Origin: an uncultured Alphaproteobacteria bacterium
GTDB taxonomy: Bacteria > Pseudomonadota > Alphaproteobacteria > Rhizobiales > Rhodomicrobiaceae
Direction of reading: 5' to 3'
Assembly (NCBI GenBank): GCA_963727575.1
Contig: CAVSIA010000038.1
Span: forward strand, 83,551-147,550
DNA: 64,000 nt
Made by a program: the position numbers and the translations under genes. Positions 10,516-33,229 of this stretch are shown here, in pieces (positions within the stretch are counted from its first letter, which is position 1; the number at the start of each line of letters is the position of its first letter). A model generated the notes under the pieces. The model was given only the letters and a program-made list of their open reading frames with translations. It was not told the origin of the DNA and ran no database searches.

Positions 10516-10517
10516 GA

Positions 10518-13136: not shown

Positions 13137-13149
13137 GAGGGTCTCCCGA

Positions 13150-14394: not shown

Positions 14395-14428
14395 TTCGTC
14401 CTCCCTGGGTTCATTCAGTTGCCGGAGG

Positions 14429-15943: not shown

Positions 15944-16015
15944 TTCCTCACCTGTTGTTTTCTTGTTTTTGTTTGATCCGCGCCGGTTTTCCCGGCGGCA
16001 GCACGCTCATCGTCG

Positions 16016-17352: not shown

Positions 17353-17366
17353 TGCAAACGTATGCA
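17353..17366. promoter_or_regulatory. LacI-type operator TGCAAACGTATGCA in the divergent promoter region between the HisD-like operon and FGE
   Basis: Matches the LacI-family consensus TGnAAnCGnTTnCA. The same motif recurs near 20369 and 33145. Confidence 0.4.
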
Positions 17367-17498
17367 GGACTTGTCAAGCGACTTCGCGCATCGCGATTTT
17401 GAGAAGGCACGGTGCTGACGAATGCGAGAAAAATCGCTGCAATAGCGAGCGGGCATGTGCTTCAATGACGCCGCGCGCGGCACCCAGGCATTGGAAGA

Positions 17499-18380
17499 AT
17501 GATGAGCGACAGCAGTAGGTTAGGCATTCGAGAGGCAGGGAACGTCGTCAGTCTGCCGGGCGGTGAGACCGTGGTCGGAACATCGCATCCGGTGATCGCA
17601 GCGGACGGCGAAGGGCCTGGCCGCCGCGTGAAGCTGCGTCCGTCTCGGATCGGCCGGTACGCCGTCACCAATGCCGAGTTCGGCGCCTTCGCAAAGGCGA
17701 CGGGCTACCTCACGGACGCCGAGCGCTTTGGCTGGTCCTATGTGTTTTACCTGCTGCTGCCGGAAGACCGGCGCGCCGGTCCGGTGCCGGAGGGGACCAG
17801 TTGGTGGCGCGTCGTCGAAGGGGCCAGCTGGCACGCACCGGAGGGACCGGATTCGTCGGTCGATGGACGACAGAACCATCCCGCCGTGCACATGTCCTGG
17901 AACGACGCTAGCGCGTTCGCCGTCTGGGCCGGAGGCCGCCTGCCGACGGAAGCCGAATGGGAGCACGCGGCGCGGGGCGGCCTTCCAAACCCAAAATTTC
18001 CCTGGGGCGATGACGAACCGGATGATGAAACCGTCTTCTGCAACATCTGGCAGGGACGCTTTCCCGACCAGAACACGCTGCGGGACGGCTATCTCGGCGC
18101 AGCCCCCGTCGACAGCTTCGCCCCGAACGGTTACGGGCTCCACAATATGTCGGGCAATATCTGGGAATGGTGCGCCGACGCATTCCGTATCCGCTCGCTT
18201 TCGAAGAGCGCCAAAAAGCGCAACGCCCTCGCCGCCGCGGAAAACGAGCGCGTGGTCAAGGGCGGATCGTATCTCTGCCACCGAAGCTATTGCTACCGCT
18301 ACCGCATCGCAGCACGCAGCGGCCGCAGCCCAGACACCTCGGCCGGAAACACCGGCTTCCGGATCGCCTTCGATCTTTGA
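17499..18380 (+). CDS. formylglycine-generating enzyme (FGE/SUMF1 family, sulfatase-maturating)
   Basis: 293 aa with typical FGE motifs (RLPTEAEWEHAARGG, GNIWEWCAD, GGSYLCHRSYCYRYR). Confidence 0.8.
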   Translation: MMSDSSRLGIREAGNVVSLPGGETVVGTSHPVIAADGEGPGRRVKLRPSRIGRYAVTNAEFGAFAKATGYLTDAERFGWSYVFYLLLPEDRRAGPVPEGTSWWRVVEGASWHAPEGPDSSVDGRQNHPAVHMSWNDASAFAVWAGGRLPTEAEWEHAARGGLPNPKFPWGDDEPDDETVFCNIWQGRFPDQNTLRDGYLGAAPVDSFAPNGYGLHNMSGNIWEWCADAFRIRSLSKSAKKRNALAAAENERVVKGGSYLCHRSYCYRYRIAARSGRSPDTSAGNTGFRIAFDL

Positions 18381-18415
18381 ACGCCGCTCCCATGCGAGCG
18401 CCTAAACGAACCGAA

Positions 18416-19927
18416 ATGGGGAGGAAAACCTTGTCAGATCCGAAGCAAGCGGGGGTTGGCGCCGTCACTGCCAGTTCCGCCGAGGCCGCCGAAGCCGGCG
18501 AAACTATCCTGTGCGCCGGCGGCAATGCGGTCGACGCTGCCGTCGCCACCGCGCTCGCATCCTGCGTCACCGATCCGTGCAACACCGGCCTCGGCGGCTA
18601 TGGCGGCCACATGGTCATTGCACAGGACGGCCCGCCGATATGCGTCGATTTCAATGCCTGGACGCCGGCCGGAACCGAGGCGTCCGCGCCGCGCGCCGGG
18701 ATCGGCGCCAGCACCGCGCCGAGTGTGGTCGCCGGATTGTCGGTCGCGCTCGACCGGTTCGGCTCGATGGATTGGGCGCAAGTGAGCGCGCCAGCGATCG
18801 CCCTGGCGGAGCGCGGCGTAAAAACCAACGCAGCGACCTCTCGCGCATTCGACCAGGCCAAAGGCGCGGCTGTTCTCGCCGAATGCTTCGTGTTCGACGA
18901 AACCGCGGCCGGCGTCACCTTCCGCCAGCCCTTGCTGGCAAAAACGCTGCGTACCCTCGCCGATCAGGGCGCCGGCTGGTTTTATCACGGCCCTAACGCC
19001 GAGCTCGGCAGCCGGCTGCTGAGCGACAATGGCCGTCCGGTCACGCCCGATCAGTGGCGCAATGCCGTCGACGCCGTGGGCGTTGCGTCCGCCCCGTCGC
19101 TGCGGGTGGGCGACACAGTCCTTTACTCGGCGCCGCTGCGCACCAGCGGTTCCCCTTGCATGTTCGCGACCGCGGCGGCGGGGGCCGGGATCGCAGAGTG
19201 CCAGAAGCTCGGATCTCCCGCCGCCGTCGCCGAATGGGCGAGGACCATGGCCTCGATCTGGAGCTACAGGTTCGGGACCGAAACCGGCAACGCGTTCGAA
19301 AACATCGCTCTCGAACAATGGGTTGCCGTCGCGATAGGCTTCCACGAGCCCGCCAGCCCACGCCTCGGGACCGGACATACCTGCCATCTCAACGCCGCAG
19401 ACAGTCGCGGCGGACGCGTTGCCCTGACGCTGACCCACGGCCCCCGATGGTTCGGCGCGCGATGGGCGCTGCCCGACACCGGCATCGTGATGAACCTGGG
19501 CGGCGCGATGTTCGGCATCCCCGGCCCCGTCGACGGCGAAGGCCGCAGATACGGCGTGACCAACATGTCGCCGACGCTTGCGATGAGCGACAACGGCGCT
19601 CAGATCGCCATTGGCTGCCCCGGCGGCAAGCGCATCCCGGGCATCGTCGCAACCGCGCTGGTCCGGCATTTATTCGCCGGCTTCGGCCTCCAGGAGGCAA
19701 TTTCGCTCGGCCGCTTCCATGCCGAAGATTTGAGCCGGACGACGCTGGAGACCGGGCGATGGGACCAGGCAACGCGCGATGCCTTGGGCGATGTGTTCGC
19801 TGCGGTGGGCGACGAGAAGCCGGAGGAATATTACGGTCCGCTGACCGCAATTGCATACGATCCGGACGGGGCGGTTTCGCTTGGTCTCGACGACCGCTGG
19901 CAGGGCTATGGCACGATCGTTCGCTAA
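18416..19927 (+). CDS. gamma-glutamyltransferase family protein
   Basis: GGT-fold throughout (GGNAVDAAVATALA..., GTGHTCHLNAADSRG Thr-nucleophile region). Start uncertain: Met at 18392 or 18416, or a TTG at 18428 preceded by GGAGG. Confidence 0.7.
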   Translation: MGRKTLSDPKQAGVGAVTASSAEAAEAGETILCAGGNAVDAAVATALASCVTDPCNTGLGGYGGHMVIAQDGPPICVDFNAWTPAGTEASAPRAGIGASTAPSVVAGLSVALDRFGSMDWAQVSAPAIALAERGVKTNAATSRAFDQAKGAAVLAECFVFDETAAGVTFRQPLLAKTLRTLADQGAGWFYHGPNAELGSRLLSDNGRPVTPDQWRNAVDAVGVASAPSLRVGDTVLYSAPLRTSGSPCMFATAAAGAGIAECQKLGSPAAVAEWARTMASIWSYRFGTETGNAFENIALEQWVAVAIGFHEPASPRLGTGHTCHLNAADSRGGRVALTLTHGPRWFGARWALPDTGIVMNLGGAMFGIPGPVDGEGRRYGVTNMSPTLAMSDNGAQIAIGCPGGKRIPGIVATALVRHLFAGFGLQEAISLGRFHAEDLSRTTLETGRWDQATRDALGDVFAAVGDEKPEEYYGPLTAIAYDPDGAVSLGLDDRWQGYGTIVR

Positions 19928-20004
19928 CTTGGGACGGGCCTCCCGCAACGGCGGTGAACGTCTTAGTCCCGGACCCGATTGCGATAATTGTCATCCGCGT
20001 GCGC

Positions 20005-20034
20005 TTGACAGCTTCGCCGGAACGTCCCTATCTT
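20005..20034 (+). promoter_or_regulatory. candidate sigma70-type promoter (TTGACA, 18 nt spacer, TATCTT) for the downstream ABC transporter operon
   Basis: Sequence match only. It lies in a 518 bp intergenic region. Confidence 0.3.
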
Positions 20035-20368
20035 TGGTATTCAATTCGGAAATCGAGACCGTTTGTTTCGATATGCTGTGCCTTAAGGGAAGCGACTTCC
20101 CGATGTCGAACGCCGACGACACCGCCGTCCATGCCCGATCGGAGAGCAGCGAGATCACGCTGCGCGGAGCGTGGAGGTGATGGCCTGGATCTTGGCCGGC
20201 GGGGCCGACACGTCTGGACGAATCGATGCAACCGGGGCGACGCGCGCCCTATCCGAATTCGACGCCTGCTCGTCAGCCGCCGGACGAAAGACAGGCGACA
20301 CACCTTAGCCCGATGGAGATCGCCGCAATCGCTGTGTAATGCACAGCCAAATGTATCAGACGCCAGTT

Positions 20369-20403
20369 TGCAAACGTATGCGTTTTGCCTTTGCAGCAAA
20401 GGC
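20369..20403. promoter_or_regulatory. LacI-type operator TGCAAACGTATGCG followed by a 17-bp perfect palindrome GCCTTTGCAGCAAAGGC, upstream of the sulfonate-type ABC transporter
   Basis: Direct sequence observation. The motif is shared with sites at 17353 and 33145. Confidence 0.4.
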
Positions 20404-20451
20404 GGCGAGGCCAAGCAGGCAATAAGCAATGGGAGGAAAGTCCAATTGGCG

Positions 20452-21279
20452 ATGACGACGATGGGCGGCGCCGAGACGACCGGTACCGCCGCCACCGGTA
20501 ATACCGGCAGCGGACTGAAAACGGTCCTGTGGAACGCTGCTTCACTGCTGATCGCCCTCGCGATCTGGCAGGTCGTGGCGATACTCGTTGCCTCGCCGTT
20601 CTTCCCCGGCCCCGTCGCCGTGCTCAATGCTTTCATCCGGCTCAGCTCCCGCGGCGACACCTTCGGAAACTCGCTCTGGACCCATTCCTGGGCAAGCATC
20701 GAGCGTGTCCTCGTCGGCTTCGGGCTCGGCGTTCTGGGGGGCGTTCCACTCGGCCTGCTGCTGGGGCTTTATCCGGCATGGTATGCACGGACCCGCTCGG
20801 TGCTGGAGCCGTTCCGCTTCATCCCTCCGATCGCGTGGATCCCACTCGCCATCATCTTCTTTTCCGGCCTCACCCGCTTCGCCTTTCTGATTTTTCTGGG
20901 TGCGTTCTTTCCGGTGTTTACGTCCACCCTCGTCGGTGTCGCCCGCGTCGAGCCGATCCACCGCAAGGTCGGCCTCGTGCACGGTGCCAGCAAAGCCTGG
21001 ACGCTATTTCATGTCGTCGTGCCCACCGTGCTGCCCGACATTCTCGCCGGCATGCGGGTCGGCCTCGGCGCCGCATGGCTGACCATCGTCGCGGCCGAGC
21101 TGGCCGGCGGGATTTCCGAGGGTTTAGGGCGCATGATGATCAATTATGCGGAGCTTCTCCAAGTACCCGAGGTCATCGTCGGTATGCTGCTGATCGGCTT
21201 CATCGGCTTCGCAATGAACGAAGTGCTGCTGCTCGCCGAGAGATACCTGTTCCGCTGGCGATGGCAGGTCAGCTTGTAA
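20452..21279 (+). CDS. ABC transporter permease, NitT/TauT family (SsuC/TauC-like)
   Basis: 275 aa; six-TM BPD-transporter permease with an EAA-like loop. It is the C-terminal part of the long ORF 19054..21279, whose upstream portion is Arg-rich junk. Confidence 0.75.
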   Translation: MTTMGGAETTGTAATGNTGSGLKTVLWNAASLLIALAIWQVVAILVASPFFPGPVAVLNAFIRLSSRGDTFGNSLWTHSWASIERVLVGFGLGVLGGVPLGLLLGLYPAWYARTRSVLEPFRFIPPIAWIPLAIIFFSGLTRFAFLIFLGAFFPVFTSTLVGVARVEPIHRKVGLVHGASKAWTLFHVVVPTVLPDILAGMRVGLGAAWLTIVAAELAGGISEGLGRMMINYAELLQVPEVIVGMLLIGFIGFAMNEVLLLAERYLFRWRWQVSL

Positions 21280-21289
21280 TGGGGCCGAT

Positions 21290-22099
21290 ATGCTGAAGAC
21301 CACGCACGGACAGGCTCCCGCCAAGGTCGAGGTCGACACCTCGCACCGCTACGGCGATCTGGTGGTCCATGAGCACCTCAAATTCGCGGTCGCCGCCAAT
21401 GAATTCGTCTGTATCTGCGGCCCCTCGGGATGCGGCAAGACCACGCTCCTGGACAGCCTCGCCGGCATTCTGAAGCCGACCGGCGGACATGTGCTGATCG
21501 ATGGCGCTCCGGCTGACCCGAAGCGGCAGAGCATCTCGTTCGTGTTCCAGGAACCTTCGACATTTCCGTGGCTTACGGTCAAGAACAACGTTGCGACCGG
21601 CCTCAGGGTGAAAGGCGGCGCGAGGAGCGACATTGACCGGAAGGTGCGCGAGACCATTGAGATCGTCGGCCTCACGGGCTTCGAGGATTACTATCCTCAC
21701 CAGATTTCCGGCGGCATGAAGCAGCGCGTTGCGATTGCGCGCGCTTTTGCGACGGATGCCGATCTCATTCTGATGGACGAGCCGTTCGTCAGTCTCGATC
21801 AGCCGACGCGCGAGCGCATGCAGAGGGAAGTGCTGGACATCTGGCGGCATCGTCTGCGTACGGTGATTTTCGTCACCCACAATATCGAGGAAGCCATCTT
21901 CCTCGCCGACCGCATTCTCATCCTTTCGGAAAAGCCTTCGCGGATCATCGCCGACATTACCGTCGAAATTCCCCGTCCGCGTGATCCGCTTGCATACGAA
22001 TTCACCGAATTGCGCGGCGAATGCGCCCGCCTGCTCACCCGACCCGCTGAATCGGCCGGAACAGCGCCACCGCCTCAGCTCCGCAAAGCGCGAACATAG
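21290..22099 (+). CDS. ABC transporter ATP-binding protein, NitT/TauT family (SsuB/TauB-like)
   Basis: Walker [10 protein letters not shown], signature [14 protein letters not shown], Walker B LILMDEPF. Confidence 0.8.
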
Positions 22100-22155
22100 G
22101 CAACCAACGACAAAAATCCGCGATCAAGCGGAAACCCTCAAACTGGGAGGATCCA

Positions 22156-23166
22156 ATGAAAGAAAGACGAAGCCTTTTGAAGATGCTCGCCGGCGCCGCG
22201 ATGAGTGCGGCACTGGTGGCAGGCACTTTGTCCGCAACGGCCCCTGCCCGCGCCGACGACAAGATGGTCACCGTGCGCCTTGGCGACCAGACCGGCTCCG
22301 AGGTCGATTACGCCGCGATCTGGGTCGCCGAGATGAACGGCTATTACAAGGACGAAGGCATCCAGATCGAGCGCAAGACATATGGCAACGGCCCTGCGGC
22401 CTTGCTCGACCTCAACAATCTCGAAGCCGCTCTCGCCGCCATTGCGCCGCATATGCAGTTCGTCGCCCGCGGCGGAGACCTCCGCATCGTGATGTCGGTC
22501 ACAAAAGGCAACGCTCCGATCGTCGGCAAGAAGCAATATAAGTCGGTAAAGGAACTGGACGGCAAAAAGGTCGGCACGCCCGGCATCGGCACCATCCATG
22601 ACGGCGTGCTCGGCTATATCGAACGCGCCGAAGGCATCAAGGTCCAGCACGTTCCCGCCAAAATCAGCGACGTCGCCGTCATGATCCAGAAGGGCGAAGT
22701 CGAGGCGTTCATCGGCTGGGAACCGGCTTCCGCCGCCGCCGTCGCGCAGGCGCCGGACCTGCTGCACTACATCCAGCGGATGCCGCCGATCGAGAACTCG
22801 GAAAGCCTGGAGCTCGCCTTCAGAACCGACTACATCAAGGAGCATCCCGAGGTGGTCGAACGCTTCGTCCGCGCGACCTTGCGCGGCATCGAGTGGATCA
22901 AGAAGAATGGCGACGAGGAAACGGCAAAGCTGCTCGCCAAGAAGGTGAACGATCCGAAGTCGTATAATGTCAATCTTGACGCGCTCAAATCCGTGGACGT
23001 TACGAAGCCGCGGCTCGACATGCCGTCGACGCGCCTTTGGCTGAAGACGATCGCCGATCAGGGCAAGATCCCCGAGGACCTCGTGAAGGATATCGACGGA
23101 TGGGTCGGCCGTTATCTCGACTACTCGTTCCTCGACAAGGCGGAAGCTTCGCTCAAATCCAAATAA
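22156..23166 (+). CDS. ABC transporter substrate-binding protein, NMT1/SsuA/TauA-like, with signal peptide
   Basis: 336 aa with an N-terminal signal (MKERRSLLKMLAGAAMSAALVAG) and a periplasmic-binding fold. A GGGAGG RBS is present. Confidence 0.75.
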   Translation: MKERRSLLKMLAGAAMSAALVAGTLSATAPARADDKMVTVRLGDQTGSEVDYAAIWVAEMNGYYKDEGIQIERKTYGNGPAALLDLNNLEAALAAIAPHMQFVARGGDLRIVMSVTKGNAPIVGKKQYKSVKELDGKKVGTPGIGTIHDGVLGYIERAEGIKVQHVPAKISDVAVMIQKGEVEAFIGWEPASAAAVAQAPDLLHYIQRMPPIENSESLELAFRTDYIKEHPEVVERFVRATLRGIEWIKKNGDEETAKLLAKKVNDPKSYNVNLDALKSVDVTKPRLDMPSTRLWLKTIADQGKIPEDLVKDIDGWVGRYLDYSFLDKAEASLKSK

Positions 23167-23249
23167 GGCGATGCGTAAGGGGCGCGGCTGAACCCGCGTC
23201 CCTGCTCAAACTCGATCAAGCGGGTGACTGAACTCGGGCTGTCGCCCTC

Positions 23250-24416
23250 TCAGCCGCGAACCAGCGCGCGGCCGACGGCGCGGGCGATCACCCGCTCTTC
23301 ATTGGTGCCGATGGCCAGGATGGCCGTCCGCCCGGCGCCGATATTGACCTGATGGCTTTCATTCCGTGCGGTATCGATCTCAATGCCGAACCAGTCCATG
23401 TGCTCGCAGACGCGGCGGCGGATCAAGGCCGATTTCTCGCCGATGCCGCCGCAGAACACGAGCGCGTCGAGCCCGCCCATAACGGCAGTCAGGGCGCCGA
23501 GCTCGTAGCGGATACGGTGAACGAAATAGTCGATTGCCTGGGCCGCTTCAGGAGCGTCGGAGGCTTCCAGCTCGCGCATGTCGCTGGTCAGCCCGGAGAT
23601 GCCGATCAGGCCGCTTTCGCGATAGAGGATCTGCGAAATCTCTGCCGAATTCAGCTTCTCCTCGTCGAGCATATAGAGCAGCACGCCCGGATCGAGCTGG
23701 CCGCAGCGCGTGCCCATGGCGAGGCCGTCGAGTGCGGTGAAGCTCATCGTCGTGGCGATGCTCCGGCCGCCCTTCACCGCGCACATCGAAGCGCCGTTGC
23801 CGAGATGGGCGATGACGACGCGGCCCGCCGCCAGGGTCGGCGCGATCCGCGCCAACTCGCGGGTCACAAACTCATAGGAGAGCCCGTGAAAGCCGTAGCG
23901 CCTGATGCCCTTGTCGTAATAGCGGCGCGGCAGGGCGAAGGCGTCGTTCACCCAGGAATGGCCACGATGAAACGCGGTGTCGAAGCATCCGACCTGGGTC
24001 GCATCCGGAAAAGCCGCTGTCGCGCTTTCCACCGCCGCAAGATTATAAGGCTGGTGCAGCGGCGCCCACGGGATCATCTCGCGCAGGCGCGCCCTGACGG
24101 CAGCATCCAACACGCAAGGCGCGGTGAATTCCGAGCCGCCATGCGTGATCCGGTGCCCCACGCCCACGACGCGGCGGTCGCCGAACAGCGCTTTGGTATG
24201 CGCCAGGATCTCGCGGATGGCGATGGCGTGGTCGGCCTCGCCGATCTCATGCGTCTCGGTCTCGCCGCCGGCACGCCCAATGCGCAAACAGGCCGCGGAG
24301 CCAAGGTTCTCGACCTGGCCCCGCGCAAGTTCCTGGGGCTCGTCCCCCCGCGCAAACAGCGCGAATTTCATGGAGGACGAGCCCGCATTCAGCGTCAGGA
24401 TCGTTTCATCTGTCAT
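23250..24416 (-). CDS. ackA: acetate kinase
   Basis: 388 aa. N-terminal ILTLNAGSSSMKFALF, HRITHGG and a conserved C-terminal region. Confidence 0.85.
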   Translation of the reverse strand: MTDETILTLNAGSSSMKFALFARGDEPQELARGQVENLGSAACLRIGRAGGETETHEIGEADHAIAIREILAHTKALFGDRRVVGVGHRITHGGSEFTAPCVLDAAVRARLREMIPWAPLHQPYNLAAVESATAAFPDATQVGCFDTAFHRGHSWVNDAFALPRRYYDKGIRRYGFHGLSYEFVTRELARIAPTLAAGRVVIAHLGNGASMCAVKGGRSIATTMSFTALDGLAMGTRCGQLDPGVLLYMLDEEKLNSAEISQILYRESGLIGISGLTSDMRELEASDAPEAAQAIDYFVHRIRYELGALTAVMGGLDALVFCGGIGEKSALIRRRVCEHMDWFGIEIDTARNESHQVNIGAGRTAILAIGTNEERVIARAVGRALVRG

Positions 24417-24440
24417 CGAATGCCTGCGGAGCCAGCGGGT

Positions 24441-24559
24441 TAGAGCGTGATCAGGAAAAGTGGAAAACGGTTTTCCCTCCGATCACGCGATCAGCAAAGG
24501 AATTTTGGAGCGGGCCAAAAGCGAAGTAGTTTCTATCCAAGGTGATCCCGCTCTAGAGC
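24441..24559. repeat. about 119-bp MITE/RIME-like intergenic repeat with terminal inverted repeats (copy 1)
   Basis: About 80% identical to 42951..43066. Terminal inverted repeats TAGAGCGTGATCAGG / GGTGATCCCGCTCTAGA, internal 8-bp stem GCGTGATC/GATCACGC enclosing GGAAAACGGTTTTCC, and an end palindrome CCGCTCTAGAGCGG. Confidence 0.6.
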
Positions 24560-26331
24560 GGCCGCTGGGGCTGCATGTCGTCGGGGCTGATCCGGGCGAC
24601 GACGACCGGTGTCTTCATCGCGTCGCGCCGGAACGGCTCGCCGAGCTCCTGGTTGAGCACCGCCTCGATGAAGGTGGTGACATTGCCGCTCATCTGCTCC
24701 TCGACCGCGACACGCAGCGCCTCGGTCAGTTCCGCCATGGTCGTCGCCTGCACGCCCTTGACGCCGCAGCCTTGCGCCACCTTGGCGTATTCGACGCCGA
24801 GATTGAGCTCGGTGCCGACGAAATTGTCGTCGAACCACAAGGTCGTGTTGCGCTTCTCCGCACCCCATTGATAGTTGCGGAAGATCACCATGGTGATGCC
24901 CGGCCAGTCATTCCGTCCGCATGCGGTCATTTCGTTCATCGAAATGCCGAAGGCGCCGTCGCCGGCAAAGCCGACGCAAGGGACATCCGGCCGCCCGATC
25001 TTTGCGCCCAGGATTGCCGGGAAGCCGTAGCCGCACGGGCCGAACAGACCCGGGGAGAGATATTTGCGCCCCGCCTCGAAGGTCGGATAGGCATTGCCGA
25101 TGGCGCAATTGTTGCCGATGTCGGTGGAGACGATCGCGTCCTTCGGCAGCGCCGCCTGGATCGCCCGCCACGCCATACGCGGCGACATCCGCTCCGGCTC
25201 GCGGGTTCGCGCACGCTCGTTCCAGCTGGTGCCGGCGTCGTCCTCCTCGTGATCCATCGAGGAGAGCGTCTGCAGCCAAGCCGATTTGGTCTGGTGAATC
25301 AGCCCCTTGCGCTCGTCGCGCCCTGCGTCGCCGGCTTTCGGCGAAAGCTGCTTCAGGATGCTCTCGGCAACCTTCTTGGCATCGCCGCAGATCCCGACCG
25401 TGACCTTCTTGGTCAAACCGATGCGGTCCGGGTTGATGTCGACCTGGATGATCTTGGCGTCCTTCGGCCAGTAGTCGATGCCATAGCCGGGAAGCGTGGA
25501 GAACGGATTGAGCCGCGTGCCGAGCGCCAGCACCACATCGGCCTTGGAGATCAGCTCCATTCCGGCTTTGGAGCCGTTATAGCCGAGCGGGCCACAGCTC
25601 AAGGGGTGCGAGCCGGGGAAAGCGTCATTGTGCTGATAGCCGCAGCAGACCGGCGCATCGAGACGCTCCGCCAACTGACGGCTGGCCTCGATCGCACCGC
25701 CCAGCACCACGCCCGCGCCGTTCAGGATCACCGGGAATTTCGCCTCGGAAAGCAGCCGCGCCGCCTCGGCAATCGCCTCATCGCCGCCGGAGGAGCGCTC
25801 GAGCTGCACACGCTGGGGCAGCTCGATGTCGATGACCTGGGTCCAGTAATCGCGCGGCACGTTGATCTGCGCCGGAGCCGAGCCACGCCATGCGCGCTCG
25901 ATAACGCGGTTCAGCACCTCGGCGATGCGGGAGGGGTCGCGGACTTCTTCCTGATAGCAGACGCAATCCTCGAACAGCGCCATCTGCGGCATCTCCTGGA
26001 AACCGCCCTGCCCGATGGTCTTGTTCGCCGCCTGCGGCGTGACCAGCAGCAGCGGCGTATGGTTCCAATAGGCGGTCTTCACCGGCGTGACCATATTGGT
26101 GATGCCCGGACCATTCTGCGCGATCATCATCGACATCTTGCCGGAGGCGCGGGTATAGCCGTCGGCCATCATGCCGGCATTGCACTCATGCGCACAGTCC
26201 CAGAACTTGATGCCCGCTTTGGGAAACAGATCGGAGATCGGCATCATCGCGGAGCCGATAATCCCGAATGCGTGCTCGATGCCGTGCATCTGCAGCACCT
26301 TCACGAAGGCTTCTTCGGTCGTCATCTTCAT
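24553..26331 (-). CDS. xsc: sulfoacetaldehyde acetyltransferase (ThDP-dependent)
   Basis: 592 aa from the internal Met of ORF 24553..26403. N-terminus MKMTTEEAFVKVLQMHGIEHAFGIIGSAMMPISDLFPKAGIKFWDCAHE... matches the highly conserved Xsc N-terminus as I remember it, and ThDP-binding motifs are present. Confidence 0.85.
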   Translation of the reverse strand: MKMTTEEAFVKVLQMHGIEHAFGIIGSAMMPISDLFPKAGIKFWDCAHECNAGMMADGYTRASGKMSMMIAQNGPGITNMVTPVKTAYWNHTPLLLVTPQAANKTIGQGGFQEMPQMALFEDCVCYQEEVRDPSRIAEVLNRVIERAWRGSAPAQINVPRDYWTQVIDIELPQRVQLERSSGGDEAIAEAARLLSEAKFPVILNGAGVVLGGAIEASRQLAERLDAPVCCGYQHNDAFPGSHPLSCGPLGYNGSKAGMELISKADVVLALGTRLNPFSTLPGYGIDYWPKDAKIIQVDINPDRIGLTKKVTVGICGDAKKVAESILKQLSPKAGDAGRDERKGLIHQTKSAWLQTLSSMDHEEDDAGTSWNERARTREPERMSPRMAWRAIQAALPKDAIVSTDIGNNCAIGNAYPTFEAGRKYLSPGLFGPCGYGFPAILGAKIGRPDVPCVGFAGDGAFGISMNEMTACGRNDWPGITMVIFRNYQWGAEKRNTTLWFDDNFVGTELNLGVEYAKVAQGCGVKGVQATTMAELTEALRVAVEEQMSGNVTTFIEAVLNQELGEPFRRDAMKTPVVVARISPDDMQPQRPL

Positions 26332-26417
26332 CGTCGCAGTTCCTTTCAGGTCCCTCGCAAGGGTATTCGATGTGAGAGCGTTGCATGGGCGCCGGGCGGG
26401 CAAATCGAAATCAGCTC

Positions 26418-27311
26418 CTAAATAGCAGGCGCGCCCTTCGCTGTCGGCAGTCTCTCGCGCAGGAGAACGGGAATCTGGCTCGGCACGTCGGCAACCGCGA
26501 CGCCGGCCGATTCCAGAGCCTTGCGCTTAGAGGGATAATCGCCTTTTCCGCCCGAGACAATCGCGCCGGCATGTCCCATCTTCTTGTCCGGCGGGGACTG
26601 GCGGCCGGCGATGAAGGCCACGACCGGCTTTTTCATCGTCTGCGCATACTCCGCCGCTTCCTCTTCCGCATTGCCGCCGATCTCGCCGCAAATGACCACG
26701 GCCTCGGTTTTATCATCTTCGTCAAGGATGCGCAGCGCGTCCGCCGTCCGGGTGCCGATCATCGGATCGCCGCCGACGCCATAGAACACCGACTGGCCAA
26801 GTCCCGCCTGGGCAATGTTGAGGCTGATCAGCGTGCCGAGGCTTCCCGAGCGAGAGATGACGCCGATAGTACCTGGCTTGAAAACGCGCGGATTAAACGC
26901 GGGCATGATGCCGACGAAGCATTCGCCGACGGTAACGAGGCCGGCAGTGTTCGGGCCGACGATGCGCGTACCGTTCGCCCCCGCGGCGACATGCATCTCC
27001 ATGACGTCATGCGCGGGGATATGCTCGGTCAGGCAGACCAGCATCTTCGCCCCCGCCTCGCAGGCGTCGATGGCGGCCTCCTTGGCCATCATCGGCGGGA
27101 TGAACATGCAGGCGATCTCGAAGGGCGTCTGCTTCGCCGCCTCGCGCGCATTGGCAAAGACGGGCACGCCGAGATATTCGGTGCCCGCCTTGCGCGGATT
27201 GACACCGCCGACGACGGTGGAGCCGTAAGTCTGCATCGCCTCGGTCCAGAACGAGCCCTGCTTGCCCGTGATGCCCTGGACGAGAATGCGGTCGCTCTTG
27301 CGCGGGATCAT
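26418..27311 (-). CDS. ADP-forming CoA ligase alpha subunit (SucD-like CoA-binding subunit)
   Basis: 297 aa with a CoA-binding Rossmann N-terminus and a phospho-His loop region ([12 protein letters not shown]). Confidence 0.75.
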
Positions 27312-28447
27312 GCCACGGCCCTCCCTTCGGCGGCGGCGACCGCGGCTTTGACCGCGTCGTCCATCAGGTCGTAAGGCTCGATGCCGAGCCGCTCGCGAAC
27401 CAGCGCCACCGCCTCATCCTCGCCGGTGCCGTGGATGGTGAAGAACACGGGGATGTCCGGCCGCAGCTCTTCCCAGGCATTGACGACGCCCGCGGCCATG
27501 ACGTCGGTGCGGGCGAAGGCGCCGCAGAAATTGACCAGCAGGCTCTTGATGTTCGGGTTCTCCAGAAGGATCGACAGCGCCGTCTTCGACTTGGTGTAAG
27601 CCTCGCCGCCGATTTCGAGGAAGTTGGCGGGCGAGCCGCCGTAATGGGCGATGACGTCCATCGTCGTCATGGTGAGGCCGGCGCCGTTGGCGAGCACGCC
27701 GACGGAGCCGCCGAGCTCGATATATTTGAGCCCCGCCGCGGCCGCCTTGGCTTCGAGCCGCGTCTGCTTTTCACCCGCCGCAAGAGACGCGATCTCCTCC
27801 TGGCGCGGAGCGGCGCTGTCGTCGACGGTCAGCTTGCAGTCGAGCGCCACGACCGCGTCGCCGGTCATCACCACCAGCGGGTTGATTTCGATCAGCTCGG
27901 CATCGAGCGCGCGATAGGCAGCGTAGAGGCGCAGCAGCGTCGCCGCCAGCTCAGCCTCGACCGCATCGAGGCCAAGCCCGTCGAGCGCCGCCCGCGCCGT
28001 CGTGTCGCTCAGCCCTTGCGCGATCGGGATCGCGAACCGCCGCATGGCGCGCGGGTCCTTCTCCGCGGCCTCCTCGACATCCATGCCGCCCATCGGCGAG
28101 AACAGCAGCATCGGCCCTTTGGACGCATCGTCATTGACGATGGCGGCGTAAAGCTCGCGCGCGATCGAGGTTTGCTCCTCGATCAGCACCTTCTCCACCG
28201 GCCATCCGCCGATCTCCATGCCGATGATCGCCTCGGCGTGGCTGCGGGCCTCTTCCGGGGAGGTCGCCAGCTTGATGCCGCCGGCCTTGCCGCGCTTGCC
28301 GGTCGGCACCTGCGCCTTGACCACGCATGGGCCGATCCGCGCCGCCGAAGCCTCGGCTTCGCCCGGCGTCCAGGCAAGCTCGCTTTCCGGCACCGCAATT
28401 CCGAAGCGCTTCAGCAGCGGCTTGGCGGCGTGCTCCTCAAAGTTCAT
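27308..28447 (-). CDS. ADP-forming CoA ligase beta subunit (SucC-like ATP-grasp subunit)
   Basis: 379 aa with ATP-grasp fold motifs. It overlaps the alpha subunit gene by 4 nt (translational coupling). Confidence 0.75.
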   Translation of the reverse strand: MNFEEHAAKPLLKRFGIAVPESELAWTPGEAEASAARIGPCVVKAQVPTGKRGKAGGIKLATSPEEARSHAEAIIGMEIGGWPVEKVLIEEQTSIARELYAAIVNDDASKGPMLLFSPMGGMDVEEAAEKDPRAMRRFAIPIAQGLSDTTARAALDGLGLDAVEAELAATLLRLYAAYRALDAELIEINPLVVMTGDAVVALDCKLTVDDSAAPRQEEIASLAAGEKQTRLEAKAAAAGLKYIELGGSVGVLANGAGLTMTTMDVIAHYGGSPANFLEIGGEAYTKSKTALSILLENPNIKSLLVNFCGAFARTDVMAAGVVNAWEELRPDIPVFFTIHGTGEDEAVALVRERLGIEPYDLMDDAVKAAVAAAEGRAVA

Positions 28448-28466
28448 CTGCGACGAAGCCTCGTTT

Positions 28467-29918
28467 TTATTTACCGTAGCGATCCCAAAACGGCCCGAAA
28501 AGATCTTCCTCGGACGGTTTGTCCTCCGGAATGGTCGTGACCAGATGGGTGATGTTGATGAAGTTGGTGTAGTTCAGATTGTCGCTGATCGTGTTGCCCG
28601 CCCAGGTGCCGCCGGCCATCGACAGCGTGAACGGCAGCGAATTGTCGAAGCTGCCGCCATTGCCGAATGTGTGCGCCTGGTTGACGAGCACCCGCACGAC
28701 ATCGGTCTCCGCCGCCAACTCGCGGGCGTGGTCCATGGTCTTGGTGTGGATGCCGGTCGAGTGGCCCTTGCCGTTGACGTTCAGCACGTCGGCGACGATG
28801 CGCTTGGCGTCCTCGAAATCGCGTGCGCGGTAGACGGTGAGGACCAGCGACAGCTTTTCGTCGGCGAAGTCGTGCTTGCCGCCGACCTTCGGCTCCTCGA
28901 CCAGGAAAAATTTGGATTTGCGCGCCTCATCCGCGAGCCCCATCGTCGCGGCGACGACGTCGGCGTCCTTGGCGATGATGTGGCGGTTGAGCTTGCCGTT
29001 CACCCAGAGCGTGGAGCGGATGCTCTCGCGTTCGGTCTCGCTGGCGCGCCAGCCGCCGGCACGTTCGAGCGCGGCAATGGCGTCGTCGTAGACGTCGTCC
29101 AGAATGATGACGGCGTTCTCCGAGGAGCACGAGGTGGCGTTGTCGAAAATCTTCGAAGCGCAGATCTTGGCCGCCGCGTCGTCGAGATCGGCGGTCGAGT
29201 CGATGATGACCGGCACGTTCCCAGCGCCGACGCCGATGGTCACGGTGCCGGACTGCATCGCGCGGCGGACGTTGTCCTGCGAGCCGGTGACGACGGCAAG
29301 GTCGACCTGCCGCATCAGTTCCTCGGTCATCGCTTTGGATACCGGCGGCGGCAGGATCTGGACGAGGTCTTCCGGATGGCCGGCTTTCTTCAGCTCGGCG
29401 CGGATCAGATCGACGGTCTTGCCGGTGGTGACGGCGCCAGACGGCGACGGCGCGATGATCACGGCATTGCCTCCCTTTATCGCCATCATCGCCTTGTTGG
29501 CAGGGGTTGCCGCCGGGTTGGTCGACGGGCATACCGCGCCAACGACGCCAACCGGCTTGCCGTAGCGGACCATGCCGCGGTCCGGGTCCTCGGAGATCAC
29601 GCCGACCGTCTTGGCGCGGAGGAGATCGCGCAGCGTGCCGAAGGTCTTGCGCTGGTTCTTGACGATCTTGGAGGCGACATTGCCAAGCCCGGTATCTTCG
29701 ACCGCCAGTTCAGCCAGCATCCGCGCATTGTCCGGCTTGTAGATCGCCCAGGCGATCGCGCGCACCGCATCGTCGACGCGAGCCTGATCGTGGTTCTCGT
29801 AAGCAGCCATGGCGGCGCGGGCGCGGGCGACGGCCTTTCCGACCTCGATCTTCGGATCGGGCTCGGCTCCGGCAACCTCGCGCACGCCTGCTGATTTCAT
29901 GTCGGTCGGTGATGACAT
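28467..29918 (-). CDS. CoA-acylating aldehyde dehydrogenase (PduP/EutE family; SauS-like sulfoacetaldehyde dehydrogenase (acylating))
   Basis: 483-aa ALDH fold with a catalytic Cys region (...NATSCSSENAVI...). Functional label is from context with xsc and the ligase. Confidence 0.7.
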   Translation of the reverse strand: MSSPTDMKSAGVREVAGAEPDPKIEVGKAVARARAAMAAYENHDQARVDDAVRAIAWAIYKPDNARMLAELAVEDTGLGNVASKIVKNQRKTFGTLRDLLRAKTVGVISEDPDRGMVRYGKPVGVVGAVCPSTNPAATPANKAMMAIKGGNAVIIAPSPSGAVTTGKTVDLIRAELKKAGHPEDLVQILPPPVSKAMTEELMRQVDLAVVTGSQDNVRRAMQSGTVTIGVGAGNVPVIIDSTADLDDAAAKICASKIFDNATSCSSENAVIILDDVYDDAIAALERAGGWRASETERESIRSTLWVNGKLNRHIIAKDADVVAATMGLADEARKSKFFLVEEPKVGGKHDFADEKLSLVLTVYRARDFEDAKRIVADVLNVNGKGHSTGIHTKTMDHARELAAETDVVRVLVNQAHTFGNGGSFDNSLPFTLSMAGGTWAGNTISDNLNYTNFINITHLVTTIPEDKPSEEDLFGPFWDRYGK

Positions 29919-30059
29919 CGCTTTGGCCTCCAGTCGTCCCCCCGGACGCTCTGCCCGGGGCCATCTTCCACATGTCTCATTCCGGTTCGGTCGGCCGGAG
30001 AGGCAACATCCAATTCCGTCAGCCCACTGACGGGACGCCGCCTCGCCGGCCTTTCGACG

Positions 30060-31031
30060 CTATAGATCCTTGAGGAGCTCCGTCAGGAACTTCTGACGCC
30101 GCTCCCACATCGCCTTCACCTCATCGCGCCCCATGATGCGCACGGGCGAGCCGCCATTCGCCATCTGCTTGGCGACCTGCTTGTCCTTGAACATCGCAGG
30201 GACCACTTTCGCCAGCTTGTCGATCACGTCCTGCGGGGTACCTTTCGGAGCCATGATGCCGCGGAAGTTCACCGAGGAATCGTCAACATCGAAGCCCTGC
30301 TCCTTGAACGTCGGCACGTCGGGCAGGAACTCCTTGTTCCGCTCCAGATCCGCAATGGCGAGGATCTTCAGCGTGTCCTGGCTGCGATAGGCGTCGGACA
30401 GATTGTTGACGCCCGCCATGACCTGGCCGCCGATCACCGATTTCAACGCCGGTGCGCCGCCCTGATGGGGAACGTAGGTGAGCTTGGCGCCGGTGACCTT
30501 CTCCATTTGCAGGAAGGCGATGTGGTGCCCGACATAGAGCCCCGCGCCGGAAATCGTCACCTTGCCGGGGTTCTCCTTGGCGAACTTGACGAGATCGGCG
30601 ACCGAGTTGAACGGGCTGTCCTTACCGACCACGAGCACGGCGGGATCGGCGCCCCAATTGGCGATCGGCTCGAGATTGTCGATGGTATATTTGGTCTTGA
30701 ACTTGATCGACTGGGCGATGAAATGCGGCACGTTATAAGCGGCCAGCTCGTAGCCGTCGGTCTTCGCGCCCGAGGCGAAGGCGTTCCAGCCGACCTTGCC
30801 GCCCGCGCCGGGCTTGTTGATGATCACGATCGGCTGGCCGAGATATTCCTCATTGCCTGCAACCATCGTGGCGATGCGGGCCTGGAAGTCGGTCGCGCCG
30901 CCCGGACTGTAGGACACCATCAGGCTCACCGGCCGGTCGGGATATTGTTGCGCCCCGGCCGGAGCCGAGAGCGTCAGTGCGGCAAGCGCTGCCAGTCCTG
31001 CAAAAACTCTTCTCATTCGCATTCCTCCCAT
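30060..31031 (-). CDS. tctC: tripartite tricarboxylate transporter substrate-binding protein (TctC/Bug family)
   Basis: Signal peptide plus Bug-family fold, 323 aa. Confidence 0.8.
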   Translation of the reverse strand: MGGMRMRRVFAGLAALAALTLSAPAGAQQYPDRPVSLMVSYSPGGATDFQARIATMVAGNEEYLGQPIVIINKPGAGGKVGWNAFASGAKTDGYELAAYNVPHFIAQSIKFKTKYTIDNLEPIANWGADPAVLVVGKDSPFNSVADLVKFAKENPGKVTISGAGLYVGHHIAFLQMEKVTGAKLTYVPHQGGAPALKSVIGGQVMAGVNNLSDAYRSQDTLKILAIADLERNKEFLPDVPTFKEQGFDVDDSSVNFRGIMAPKGTPQDVIDKLAKVVPAMFKDKQVAKQMANGGSPVRIMGRDEVKAMWERRQKFLTELLKDL

Positions 31032-31077
31032 ATCTCAGTGTCGTTTCGTCCCGGTATCCAGGATCTTCCTTCTTGTC

Positions 31078-31554
31078 CTAGAGAAGCACGCCGCGCGGGG
31101 TCTGCACCTGCAGCCCGACCGAAAACACGACGTAGATGAGCGCGATGAAGCCTGCGGTGATCGCAAGGCGGACGGCCCAGGTCCGCGGGCTCAAATGCGG
31201 CTCAGAGTCATAGAGCGTATAAAGCGCCAGGAACGCCACCGCCGCGCCCGCGTAATAGCCGAGCCCGGTCGCCAGCACGAACACATAGAGCAGCATCAGC
31301 GCGATCCCCGGCGCGACCGCCACGACCTGCGCGAGCGTGAAGCCCGCCCCCGTGCGGTTCGCGCCGCGCAGCGCGCGGGCAAAGGCGAAGATGCCGAGGC
31401 CGACCATTGTTACGGCGATAAGCTGCGGAAAAAGATAGGGCGTCGGGTCGTCGACCCGGAAGCTGACATAGGCGAGCCACAGGCCGAGCGCGAGCAGCAG
31501 CCCGGCGGCGATGGATTGCTGCGTGCGGCCCGCATTGTCCTGTTGCCAGCTCAT
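31078..31554 (-). CDS. tctB: tripartite tricarboxylate transporter TctB-family small membrane protein
   Basis: 158 aa with four TM helices. Position between tctC and tctA. Confidence 0.65.
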   Translation of the reverse strand: MSWQQDNAGRTQQSIAAGLLLALGLWLAYVSFRVDDPTPYLFPQLIAVTMVGLGIFAFARALRGANRTGAGFTLAQVVAVAPGIALMLLYVFVLATGLGYYAGAAVAFLALYTLYDSEPHLSPRTWAVRLAITAGFIALIYVVFSVGLQVQTPRGVLL

Positions 31555-33062
31555 GTCAGCGCTCCTTCCACCGCATCGATCCGCCGGAGCCGGATCTCGG
31601 ACGCCACCGAATAGGCGAGCGAGGCCAGCACCAGGGCGATCAGCAGCAGATTGAGCGGCCCGGTGCAGAAATAGGCCAGCACCCCGTCCTGCGCCTCGGC
31701 GATGATGCGGCCCTGGACATAATTGGTCTCCGCGATCGGCCCGAGGATGACGCCGAGCACCAGCGGGGCCGGGCTGAAGCCGTATTGCTGAAGCACATAC
31801 ATGCCGAGGCCGAGCATCAGCATGACCACGACATCGGACTGCGAATTCTGCACCGAATAGGCGCCGAACACGGCAAAGACGAGGATGGCGCTAGCGAGAA
31901 TGGCGGGCGGAATGCGGATCACATGCGCGGCGAGCCCGGCGATGTAAAGGCCGAAGACCATCATCAGCGCTTGCCCGATCAGCAGCGAATTGATGAACGC
32001 CCAGGCCACGTCGCCGTGCTGGGTGAACAGGTTCGGGCCGGGAAAGATGCCATGGATCAGCAGGCCGCCGAGCAGCACCGCCGCGGTCGGGCTGCCCGGA
32101 ACGGAGAGCGTCAGCAGCGGTACGAGCGAGGGGCCGACCATGGCGTTGTTCGCGGTCTCGGCGGCGATCACGCCCTCGGCTTCGCCGGTGCCGAAAACGC
32201 GGCGACGCGGTGAGAACCGGCGGACCTGGTCATAGGAGACGAGCCCGGCAATCTGGCCGCCGGCGCCGGGAATGAGGCCGATGATGATGCCGACGACGCT
32301 GCCGATCGAGCAGGCGCGCACATGCCGGAAGGTCTCCCTGACCGATGCCCAGACGCTGTGCGGCCGCACCTCCATCATGTTGTATTCCCGGCCCCGGCGC
32401 GCGTTCTGCAGCATCTCGATGATCTGCGGAACAGCGAACAGGCCGATCAGCGCGGCAACGATATTGACCCCGCCCTCCAGATGCTCGGAGAACACGAAGC
32501 GCTCCACGCCCTGGACCGAGTCGTAGCCGATCATCGCGATCCAGAGGCCGATGCAGCCGGCCAGCAGGCCCTTGACCACGGATTTGGAGTCGAGCGAGCC
32601 GATGATGGTGACGCCGAGAATGGCGATCCAGAACAGATGCGACGGGCCGAAGCCGAGCGCCCATTTCGCCAGGATCGGCGTGAAGAAGATGAGGACCAGA
32701 ACGCCGAGCACGCCGCCGATGAAGGAGGAAATGAAACAGAGCTGCAGTGCCTTGGCGCCGTCGCCGCGCTTGGCCATCTCGTAGCCGTCGAGCGCCGTGG
32801 CGATATTGGCCGGCGCGCCGGGGATCTTCAGCAGCACGGCGCTGACGGCTCCGCCGGCGACGGTCGCGGTATAGGCCGCGCCGAGCAGCATCAGTCCCTG
32901 CGCGGGGTCCATGTGGAACGTGAACGGTATCAACAACGCCACCGCCATCGTCGGGGAAAGCCCCGGCGTCGCCCCAAGAAGCAGCCCACCGACCGTCCCG
33001 GCGCACAGGATCGCCATGGACGATAGCGTGAAGACGGGGCCAAAATGCTGCAGGAATTCCAT
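31551..33062 (-). CDS. tctA: tripartite tricarboxylate transporter TctA-family permease
   Basis: 503 aa from MEFLQHFGP...; multi-TM TctA family. It overlaps tctB by 4 nt. Confidence 0.8.
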   Translation of the reverse strand: MEFLQHFGPVFTLSSMAILCAGTVGGLLLGATPGLSPTMAVALLIPFTFHMDPAQGLMLLGAAYTATVAGGAVSAVLLKIPGAPANIATALDGYEMAKRGDGAKALQLCFISSFIGGVLGVLVLIFFTPILAKWALGFGPSHLFWIAILGVTIIGSLDSKSVVKGLLAGCIGLWIAMIGYDSVQGVERFVFSEHLEGGVNIVAALIGLFAVPQIIEMLQNARRGREYNMMEVRPHSVWASVRETFRHVRACSIGSVVGIIIGLIPGAGGQIAGLVSYDQVRRFSPRRRVFGTGEAEGVIAAETANNAMVGPSLVPLLTLSVPGSPTAAVLLGGLLIHGIFPGPNLFTQHGDVAWAFINSLLIGQALMMVFGLYIAGLAAHVIRIPPAILASAILVFAVFGAYSVQNSQSDVVVMLMLGLGMYVLQQYGFSPAPLVLGVILGPIAETNYVQGRIIAEAQDGVLAYFCTGPLNLLLIALVLASLAYSVASEIRLRRIDAVEGALT

Positions 33063-33144
33063 TAGCAACTCACCCTGATAACGTTTCCTTCTAGCGGGTC
33101 TGGTGCCAGCCTTTGTGATCATGCTAGGTAATGAAAACGGCCTT

Positions 33145-33158
33145 GCAAACGTTTTCAT
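33145..33158. promoter_or_regulatory. LacI-type operator TGCAAACGTTTTCA between tctA and the divergent LacI gene
   Basis: Close match to the TGnAAnCGnTTnCA consensus. An adjacent half-site TGAAAACGG lies at about 33132. Confidence 0.45.
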
Positions 33159-33229
33159 TTGGCAAAAGTGCTGTGCTTCGCCATTGATCGGGTCAGAAAT
33201 GGGACGCAAATTGCTGCGCTCGAGCGTGC

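Follow-up and report, generated by a model that had tools for sequence, protein, structure and literature searches.

Operators of the LacI/GalR family are palindromes centered on CG, as in the PurR operator ACGCAAACGTTTGCGT and the CcpA cre site TGWAANCGNTNWCA. Sulfoacetate degradation in Cupriavidus necator H16 is reportedly controlled by a regulator of another family, the IclR-type protein SauR, which is said to act on sauSTU; the sau cluster of that organism reportedly combines a major facilitator superfamily (MFS) transporter with the AMP-forming ligase SauT. A sulfoacetate pathway that runs through SauXYZ, SauS, and SauCD was described by Liu et al. 2023 (PMC10413351), in whose main text the word "regulator" does not occur. 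A precedent for LacI-type control of sulfonate genes comes from HpsR (SPO0590) of Ruegeria pomeroyi DSS-3, which is annotated as the LacI-family regulator of the 2,3-dihydroxypropane-1-sulfonate (DHPS) genes hpsKLMNOP (PMC4334477) and has been called their "likely" regulator (PMC13335735). Here we analyze a 64-kb stretch of contig CAVSIA010000038.1, from an uncultured member of the Rhodomicrobiaceae (the whole stretch is referred to below as the window), in which near-identical 14-mers stand at three promoters. A first-pass annotation, made from the sequence alone, had attributed these 14-mers to a single LacI-family repressor, probably the adjacent one, coordinating one organosulfur regulon, and had called LacI an unusual regulator class for sulfonate genes, which the annotation of HpsR shows to be overstated. 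We think it likely that the three sites belong instead to two separate LacI-family repressor/operator systems, with one half-site common to their operators.

All three sites lie in noncoding DNA ahead of genes, according to a gene map that combines a choice of open reading frames (ORFs) by third-position GC content (GC3) with Pfam and NCBIfam scans. Site 1 (TGCAAACGTATGCA, plus strand, 17353-17366) occupies the divergent promoter region between a hisD-like gene and a gene for a formylglycine-generating enzyme (FGE). It precedes the hisD-like start (17323, minus strand) by 30 to 43 nt and the FGE start (17499, plus strand) by 133 nt, and it begins 8 nt downstream of a TTGACA hexamer read on the minus strand (17375-17380). 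Site 2 (TGCAAACGTATGCG, plus strand, 20369-20382) is found 70 to 83 nt upstream of the start of an ATP-binding cassette (ABC) permease gene (20452). Site 3 (TGCAAACGTTTTCA, plus strand), whose start was corrected from 33145 to 33144, extends to 33157 within the 136-bp gap that separates the tctA start (33062, minus strand) from the ATG of a LacI-family gene, lacI-2 (33199); it is 42 nt from this ATG and is overlapped by a -35-like hexamer, TTGCAA (33143-33148). The sites have TGCAAACGT and a LacI-type architecture in common, and their earlier description as LacI-type operators in promoter regions is supported. The degenerate pattern TGCAAACGTWTKCR has exactly three matches in the window, all on the plus strand, compared to a mean of 0.01 in shuffled sequence, and none of 100 shuffles reached three. 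Because the pattern was fitted to the three sites post hoc, this statistic is inflated, but the conservation of the sites in other genomes provides independent support for the view that they did not arise by chance. Promoter and terminator scans of the three site regions returned nothing useful.

The first-pass annotation had named only the LacI gene adjacent to site 3, but the window contains three LacI-family paralogues, about 30% identical to one another. Two of these concern us here: lacI-2 (33199-34252, plus strand) and lacI-1 (4290-5405, minus strand), the latter an intact ORF. As in other LacI/GalR proteins, a helix-turn-helix (HTH) domain is joined to a periplasmic-binding-protein-like effector domain in both products. 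LacI-2 matches PF00356 at 56.8 bits (cutoff, 27) and PF13377 at 106 bits; LacI-1 matches the same families at 49.7 and 100 bits and aligns end to end with its orthologue in locus L163. LacI-2 carries the LacI and Peripla_BP domains only, HTH_IclR and IclR_C being absent from it, and its closest solved structures are CcpA, a LacI-family GntR, and PurR. The candidate operators likewise conform to the family, as each is an inverted repeat of 14 bp with CG at its center and overlaps promoter elements, and the proposed target operon of each regulator either adjoins or includes the regulator gene. The targets differ, as they are not sugar or nucleotide genes but a sulfoacetate degradation operon and a cluster for a sulfatase, a transporter, a carboxylase, and a BKACE protein. 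The LacI-2 operator also departs from the family pattern in its conserved asymmetry (TGCAAAC versus TGAAAAC) and in an extra conserved half-site 13 nt upstream.

The two motif types can be separated by score, by genomic context, and by the proteins associated with them. A sau-type matrix was built from 74 operators of LacI-2 orthologues, the weakest of which scores 20.2 bits, and a LacI-1-type matrix has a training range of 13.5 to 27.4 bits. On the LacI-1-type and sau-type matrices, respectively, the scores are 25.3 and 12.4 bits for site 1, 17.1 and 3.7 for site 2, and 21.4 and 29.8 for site 3. Over 2.2 Mb of related loci the two motif types exclude each other: the 0.77 Mb of loci around hisD-like genes contain no sau-type site, and the 1.42 Mb of sau loci contain none of the TGCATAC type. 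An unbiased count of CG-centered near-palindromes gave TGCATAC as the top half-site in the hisD-like loci and TGAAAAC and TGCAAAC in the sau loci. The recognition helices, at least 90% conserved inside a clade, are distinct in the two clades (VSPATVSRYFN in the LacI-2 clade versus VSQSAVSRVFT in the LacI-1 clade). Each motif type is thus associated exclusively with one regulator clade. Sites 1 and 2 are hybrids that have TGCAAAC, the sau-type half, on the left and TGCATAC on the right. Hybrids of this kind are also found in hisD-like loci that have no sau genes nearby (L106, L108, L112, L152, and L156), and for this reason we regard them as ordinary variants of the LacI-1-type operator.

Site 3 is best understood from the relatives of LacI-2. 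A scan of one genome per species yielded 80 loci (L001 to L080) with LacI-2 relatives at 49 to 75% identity. The clade is present in at least 80 species, including Hyphomicrobiaceae metagenome-assembled genomes (the nearest), Roseovarius nubinhibens ISM, and Ruegeria species, and tctABC-sauS adjoins the regulator gene in every locus except two short contigs. TGCAAACGTTTTCA was found with at most one mismatch in 73 of the 80 loci, mostly 20 to 100 nt upstream of the start of lacI. The sites collected there include 44 copies of the exact sequence and 24 of a roseobacter variant, TGCAAATGTTTTCA. When the intergenic regions are aligned, only the site 3 block and a nearby ATGAAAA are conserved, and the flanks vary. 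By this comparison the block is a textbook phylogenetic footprint of a predicted local repressor, so that the attribution of site 3 to the adjacent LacI gene was well founded: it is the footprinted candidate operator of the LacI-2 orthologous group, beside the sulfoacetate operon. In three loci (L012, L013, and L018) a second LacI-2-type site follows lacI and stands ahead of an operon for an ABC binding protein, ATPase, and permease together with xsc (∼11049-16010). The sau operon of these three genomes lacks xsc, and the regulon is split over two operons.

The conserved composite in the window (33121-33158) and in the loci L001 to L080 reads GCTA-n4-ATGAAAAY-n5-TGCAAACGTTTTCAT. It includes the extra half-site ATGAAAAC (33131-33138, plus strand), which is an inverted repeat of GTTTTCAT at 33151-33158, is at least 90% conserved across 74 loci, and is located between the -35-like and -10-like elements of the tctA promoter. 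ATGAAAAC may act as a second or third operator half-site or as a promoter element. A further candidate operator, TGATAACGTTTCCT at 33076, was rejected: it overlaps the tctA ribosome-binding site (AGGAAA, minus strand), scores 4.6 bits, and is conserved only in its ribosome-binding part. TGGAAACGTTGGCT at 57451 was likewise rejected as a further site, at 5.7 bits. Two variations within the clade can be added. The center of TGCAAATGTTTTCA is TG instead of CG, which is unusual for LacI-family operators, in ∼24 Roseobacter-group loci among L030 to L079 (e.g., L046, Roseovarius nubinhibens ISM, and L055, Ruegeria atlantica). The hinge region of the window LacI-2 reads ...AARSL, compared to a clade consensus of ...AAGSM.

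For sites 1 and 2, LacI-1, which the first-pass annotation missed, is the better candidate regulator. A metagenome scan for relatives of the hisD-like gene gave 80 loci at 68 to 78% identity, to which plasmid records added more. The LacI genes within 8 kb of these hisD-like orthologues were all of the LacI-1 type (34 of 34), with a mean identity of 51% to LacI-1 versus 28% to LacI-2, and the usual arrangement is a cassette of the hisD-like gene, an optional gene, a short-chain dehydrogenase/reductase (SDR) gene, and lacI. Of the 30 hisD-like loci that encode a clear LacI-1-type protein (at least 44% identity), 22 have a site within two mismatches of TGCATACGTATGCA, the motif that sites 1 and 2 fit; of the 52 that do not, 9 have one. 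On the plasmids pOT10-1 of Roseomonas and pSMED01 of Sinorhizobium medicae WSM419, the hisD-like, SDR, and LacI genes are flanked by two to four LacI-1-type sites.

The individual sites are conserved as well. The exact site 1 14-mer recurs in L167, 42 to 55 nt upstream of a hisD-like orthologue (81% identity) that is divergent from FGE, although the flanks cannot be aligned, and it is also present in L112, L106, and L108. Orthologous ABC operons were identified in L167, L169, and L170. The exact site 2 14-mer stands ∼72 to 85 nt upstream of the orthologous permease gene in L167 and 81 to 94 nt before it in L170, with unrelated flanks in both. L163 encodes a LacI-1 orthologue at 76% identity, and its sulfatase, DctPQM, SDR, HIBADH, carboxylase, SDR, LacI, and BKACE genes are intact and codirectional. 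In the more distant L173, a LacI-1-type gene (47% identity) is found beside FGE, and TGCAAGCGTATGCA lies 70 nt upstream of the operon that runs from the sulfatase to the hisD-like gene. The gene order of the window, with intact genes, recurs in L163, L169, and L173, and in L167, L169, and L173, as in the window, the FGE gene is divergent from a hisD-like or sulfatase gene. The simplest reading is that a module of hisD-like, SDR, and LacI-1 genes brought its own operator into the sulfatase cluster.

We infer binding, repression, effectors, and the operon structure of a 14-kb gene string from these comparisons, as follows. LacI-2 would bind the quasi-palindrome formed by TGCAAAC and GTTTTCA at 33144-33157, across the -35-like TTGCAA, and would repress both its own gene and the sulfoacetate operon, which encodes a tripartite tricarboxylate transporter (TTT), SauS, a sulfoacetate-CoA ligase of the ADP-forming type, Xsc, and acetate kinase; it would presumably be released by sulfoacetate or a pathway intermediate. 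LacI-1 would bind TGCAAAC joined to GTATGCA at 17353 and TGCAAAC joined to GTATGCG at 20369. It would thereby repress the string of hisD-like, sulfatase, tripartite ATP-independent periplasmic (TRAP) transporter, carboxylase, and BKACE genes, lacI-1 included, and also the divergent FGE-GGT unit and the ABC operon with its NMT1-type binding protein. Its inducer would be some substrate or intermediate.

The explanation that the first-pass annotation favored, in which LacI-2 alone binds all three sites and so coordinates sulfatase maturation, ABC transport, and the xsc operon, now seems to us very unlikely. It is consistent with the common core and architecture of the sites, with the rank of site 1 as the second-best match in the window to the sau-type matrix, and with the LacI-2-type sites that precede an ABC-xsc operon in other genomes. 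However, even the weakest of the 74 orthologous LacI-2 operators outscores site 1 by 8 bits and site 2 by 16, and among 96 collected sau-type sites G never occurs at position 12 and A occurs at position 10 once, in a poor match. The 1.42 Mb around the 80 lacI-2 orthologues, as noted, is free of TGCATAC-type sites. The genes behind sites 1 and 2 have orthologues that are accompanied by LacI-1-type regulators, the recognition helices of the two clades are distinct, and lacI-2 itself is frameshifted in the window. Still less credible, and to be set aside almost entirely, is the idea that the sites resemble each other by chance or through promoter hexamers alone. The degenerate pattern was indeed fitted after the fact, and every site contains the -35-like TTGCAA, but three matches stand against 0.01 expected, and all 14 positions of each site, unlike the flanks, are conserved in distant orthologous loci.

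Cross talk through the shared TGCAAAC half-site, with LacI-1 also binding site 3 or LacI-2 binding site 1 weakly and so linking the two pathways, is unlikely, if less so than a single repressor. The score of site 3 on the LacI-1-type matrix is inside the training range, and the hybrid form of sites 1 and 2 is kept exactly in L167 and L170. The matrix, however, assumes independent positions, and no natural site in a LacI-1 context combines the three minor variants of site 3; the motif types are strictly segregated by genomic context, and the same hybrids occur where no sau genes are near. A related and rather improbable possibility is that the sites at 17353 and 20369 are dual-input operators read by both paralogues. 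Were this the case, the sulfate-ester cluster would have sulfoacetate as a second signal beside its own inducer, as part of a small cross-wired organosulfur network. The more modest and more likely proposal is that the proteins of the LacI-2 clade are LacI-family sensors, responding to the C2 sulfonate sulfoacetate or to a pathway intermediate, which we regard as somewhat better than an even prospect. Finally, sites 1 and 2 could be bound by a non-LacI regulator, such as an IclR-type protein encoded elsewhere in the genome. An IclR gene ends 45 to 55 nt before the exact site 2 in L167 and L170, and L169 has one in the same cluster. We hold this to be highly improbable, as L169 has the IclR gene and no such site, no IclR gene was found among the window ORFs scanned, and the motif is a CG-centered 14-bp palindrome typical of LacI-family operators. 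Moreover, the motif tracks LacI-1-type genes in loci without an annotated IclR, such as Roseomonas pOT10-1, and in the L173 locus, where no IclR gene was called, the motif occurs together with a LacI-1-type gene.

Several observations nevertheless weigh against assigning the three sites to two repressors. The left half of sites 1 and 2 is typical of the sau type, so weak binding by LacI-2 is possible, and site 3 falls within the LacI-1-type range. Both matrices were built from sites found by consensus searches, which favors the consensus. lacI-1 is 12 kb from site 1, and the 14-kb string may comprise more than one transcript. An IclR-family gene is next to site 2 in L167 and L170. In L169, sulfatase and ABC clusters occur with an IclR gene, and no LacI gene, hisD-like gene, or LacI-1-type site was found in the locus, which implies that control of the sulfatase cluster is not uniform. 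To these we add the frameshift in lacI-2, which, if real, would leave the sau operon unrepressed in the source organism.

This frameshift affects the 5' end of the gene. The start at 33230 proposed previously is a CAG codon, which is not a start codon. The sequence from 33199 reads ATG GGA CGC AAA TTG CTG CGC TCG AGC GTG CCA GGG, then an extra C (33235), then ATC GTC GAC. Six of the seven aligned orthologues (L001 to L006) begin M-x-R-K/R-L-L/F-R-...-P-G-I-V/I-D-V, and compared with these six the window gene has a +1 insertion after codon 12, with the HTH frame resuming at 33236. The extra C therefore puts the HTH out of frame with the start codon. In the frame of the HTH, no canonical start precedes a GTG at 33344, which is downstream of the HTH, and no intact HTH-encoding frame for lacI-2 is present in the window sequence. 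The insertion may be a mutation or an assembly error.

The operon under site 3 clearly belongs to organosulfur metabolism and corresponds to the described sulfoacetate route. It occupies 23250-33062 on the minus strand and begins with tctA (31551-33062), tctB (31078-31554), and tctC (30060-31031), which form a SauXYZ-like TTT transporter and whose TctC matches the TctC Pfam family. These are followed by sauS (28467-29918), the beta and alpha subunits of an ADP-forming, SauCD-like CoA ligase (27308-28447 and 26418-27311), xsc (24553-26403), and ackA (23250-24416). SauS scores 780.5 bits on NF047625 (cutoff, 600), and Xsc scores 956 bits on TIGR03457 (cutoff, 676). The alpha and beta ligase subunits fall just below the cutoffs of the succinate-CoA ligase models (334.9 versus 353.2 and 358.8 versus 370 bits), as would be expected of paralogues. 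The operon ends in ackA and not in the phosphotransacetylase usually paired with Xsc, implying an ATP-yielding conversion of acetyl phosphate to acetate.

In its gene content the operon resembles the SauXYZ-SauS-SauCD system, sharing a TTT transporter, an acylating sulfoacetaldehyde dehydrogenase, a two-subunit ligase of the succinyl-CoA ligase type, and Xsc (PMC10413351). The alpha- and gammaproteobacterial clusters of that study mostly have SauT, whereas the window and its closest relatives have a SauCD-like ligase with Xsc and acetate kinase; judged by family and gene content, the ligase and TTT transporter are as in Bilophila (PMC10413351). The presumed role of LacI-2, local control of sulfoacetate uptake and of conversion to sulfoacetaldehyde via sulfoacetyl-CoA, is like that of SauR. 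The two belong to different families, LacI and IclR, and are analogous, not homologous, and the MFS transporter and SauT of C. necator contrast with the TTT transporter and ADP-forming ligase here. In the literature searched we found no account of sulfoacetate genes with a LacI-type regulator or operator, which is weak evidence because subscription journals were thinly covered. Both pairs look like ordinary LacI repressor/operator pairs with related operators, and the sulfoacetate-linked pair appears to be undescribed.

The other half of the proposed organosulfur regulon is less certain to deserve the name. Site 1 heads a codirectional minus-strand string of 14 kb (3319-17323) with short gaps, from which we would take it to be a single transcript. 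Following the hisD-like gene (16016-17323) and the sulfatase gene (14429-15943), both identified by Pfam, it comprises dctP (∼13200-14394), dctQ (12621 to ∼13130), dctM (11314 to ∼12590), SDR (10518-11303), and HIBADH-like (9604-10515) genes. Genes for a carboxyltransferase, a biotin carboxyl carrier protein (BCCP), and a biotin carboxylase (∼6182-9560) come next, followed by a second SDR gene (5413-6210), lacI-1 (next to last), and a BKACE gene (3319-4200). In the opposite direction from site 1 run FGE (17499-18380) and GGT (∼18400-19927), both on the plus strand and assigned by the Pfam families FGE-sulfatase and G_glu_transpept. Downstream of site 2 is the ABC operon (20452-23166, plus strand), composed of the permease (20452-21279), the ATPase (21290-22099), and an NMT1/SsuA-like binding protein (22156-23166). 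From the sulfatase and FGE genes, the substrate should be a sulfate ester. At the family level all gene labels of the first-pass annotation were right (Histidinol_dh, Sulfatase, DctP/Q/M, FGE-sulfatase, GGT, an ABC transporter with an NMT1-type binding protein, TctABC, SauS, Xsc, and LacI).

The ABC binding protein is far below the TauA and SsuA cutoffs (27 versus 304 bits on TIGR01729, 30 versus 490 on NF008553, and 86 versus 163.5 on the SsuA family model) and meets only the broad NMT1 fold family; no close relatives of it were found in the plasmid collection. The hisD-like protein is closer to the DHPS enzyme HpsN (407 bits to CpHpsN, structure 8v35) than to the best HisD structure (262 bits). 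HpsN binds the sulfonate through His126, within a GRYAH motif (PMC11382572). This histidine is absent from the window protein, which has GRYPM with Met in its place, and Met occupies the position, as G[RK]YPM, in 115 of the 120 closest homologues (P0121 to P0240). The substrate of this subfamily is probably not DHPS. The organosulfur designation is clear for the sau half and uncertain for the sulfatase and ABC half, with His126 absent and the TauA and SsuA cutoffs missed.

LacI-1 nevertheless invites comparison with HpsR. By annotation, HpsR too is a LacI-family protein, and its gene neighbors those for a TRAP transporter and for the HisD-like dehydrogenase HpsN of an organosulfonate pathway. 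The LacI-1-type cassettes of Ruegeria, Roseomonas, and Sinorhizobium plasmids differ in standing among sugar-type ABC, ester-cyclase, and cupin genes and not among hps genes; the Ruegeria plasmid cassette with its LacI-1-type gene is not an hps cluster. The G[RK]YPM subfamily is automatically annotated as sulfopropanediol 3-dehydrogenase in JGI records, and its genes are usually accompanied by those for an SDR and a LacI protein.

If the two-repressor explanation is correct, LacI-2 would be a predicted local regulator of sulfoacetate degradation in aerobic Alpha- and Gammaproteobacteria, with a defined operator (TGCAAACGTTTTCA, or TGCAAATGTTTTCA in roseobacters). The motif could serve in the annotation of sulfoacetate regulons, and a sulfoacetate biosensor might be attempted with the repressor/operator pair. 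The hisD-like/SDR/LacI cassette, for its part, is a widespread, uncharacterized module that is automatically annotated (JGI) as a DHPS dehydrogenase without having the sulfonate-binding His. For motif-based regulon calls the locus is a caution, as LacI paralogues within 64 kb would serve different regulons through operators identical at 11 or 12 of 14 bases. The general understanding of LacI-family regulation is unchanged by these findings.

The two halves of the locus also differ in the state of their genes. The 10-kb sau operon has one reading frame per gene and no frameshifts. At least 10 frameshifts are present in the dctP, dctM, carboxyltransferase, BCCP, and biotin carboxylase genes when these are compared with the intact proteins of L163, at 6182-9560, ∼12155, ∼13238, and ∼13408. 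Amino acid identity is undiminished in the pieces of dctP, dctM, and the carboxylase. The frameshifts may be either an assembly artifact or very recent gene decay.

Some smaller features of the region remain. A candidate auxiliary LacI-1-type site, TGCATACGAATTCA (21991-22004, plus strand), scores 22.8 bits and falls within the ATPase gene of the ABC operon, at the 3' end of that gene and ∼150 nt ahead of the one for the binding protein; it is a weak candidate because it is not conserved in L169 or L170. A high-scoring LacI-1-type site is likewise found inside the biotin carboxylase gene of L173 (11082-11095). Such intragenic sites may be auxiliary operators or may be due to chance. The 17-bp perfect palindrome noted earlier just after site 2, GCCTTTGCAGCAAAGGC (20387-20403, plus strand), is present as a single copy in the window and was not found at the equivalent place in L167 or L170. 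Between FGE and the ABC operon, the segment 18400-20368 holds GGT and a short coding-like stretch (19851-20180) where L167 and L169 carry an IclR-family gene. Across relatives (L163, L169, and L173), the conserved but uncharacterized cluster (3319-15943 in the window; sulfatase, TRAP transporter, SDR, HIBADH-like protein, three-part biotin carboxylase, and BKACE, with FGE divergent) is accompanied by regulators that vary: LacI-1 type, IclR, or both.

The third paralogue, lacI-3 (41461-42549), was considered as the regulator of sites 1 to 3 and rejected on account of its different recognition helix and its own perfect palindrome, TGGTAGCGCTACCA (41350-41363), which lies in a divergent region shared with a 2-keto-3-deoxy-6-phosphogluconate (KDPG) aldolase gene. 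Downstream of lacI-3 is a sugar-type ABC transporter.

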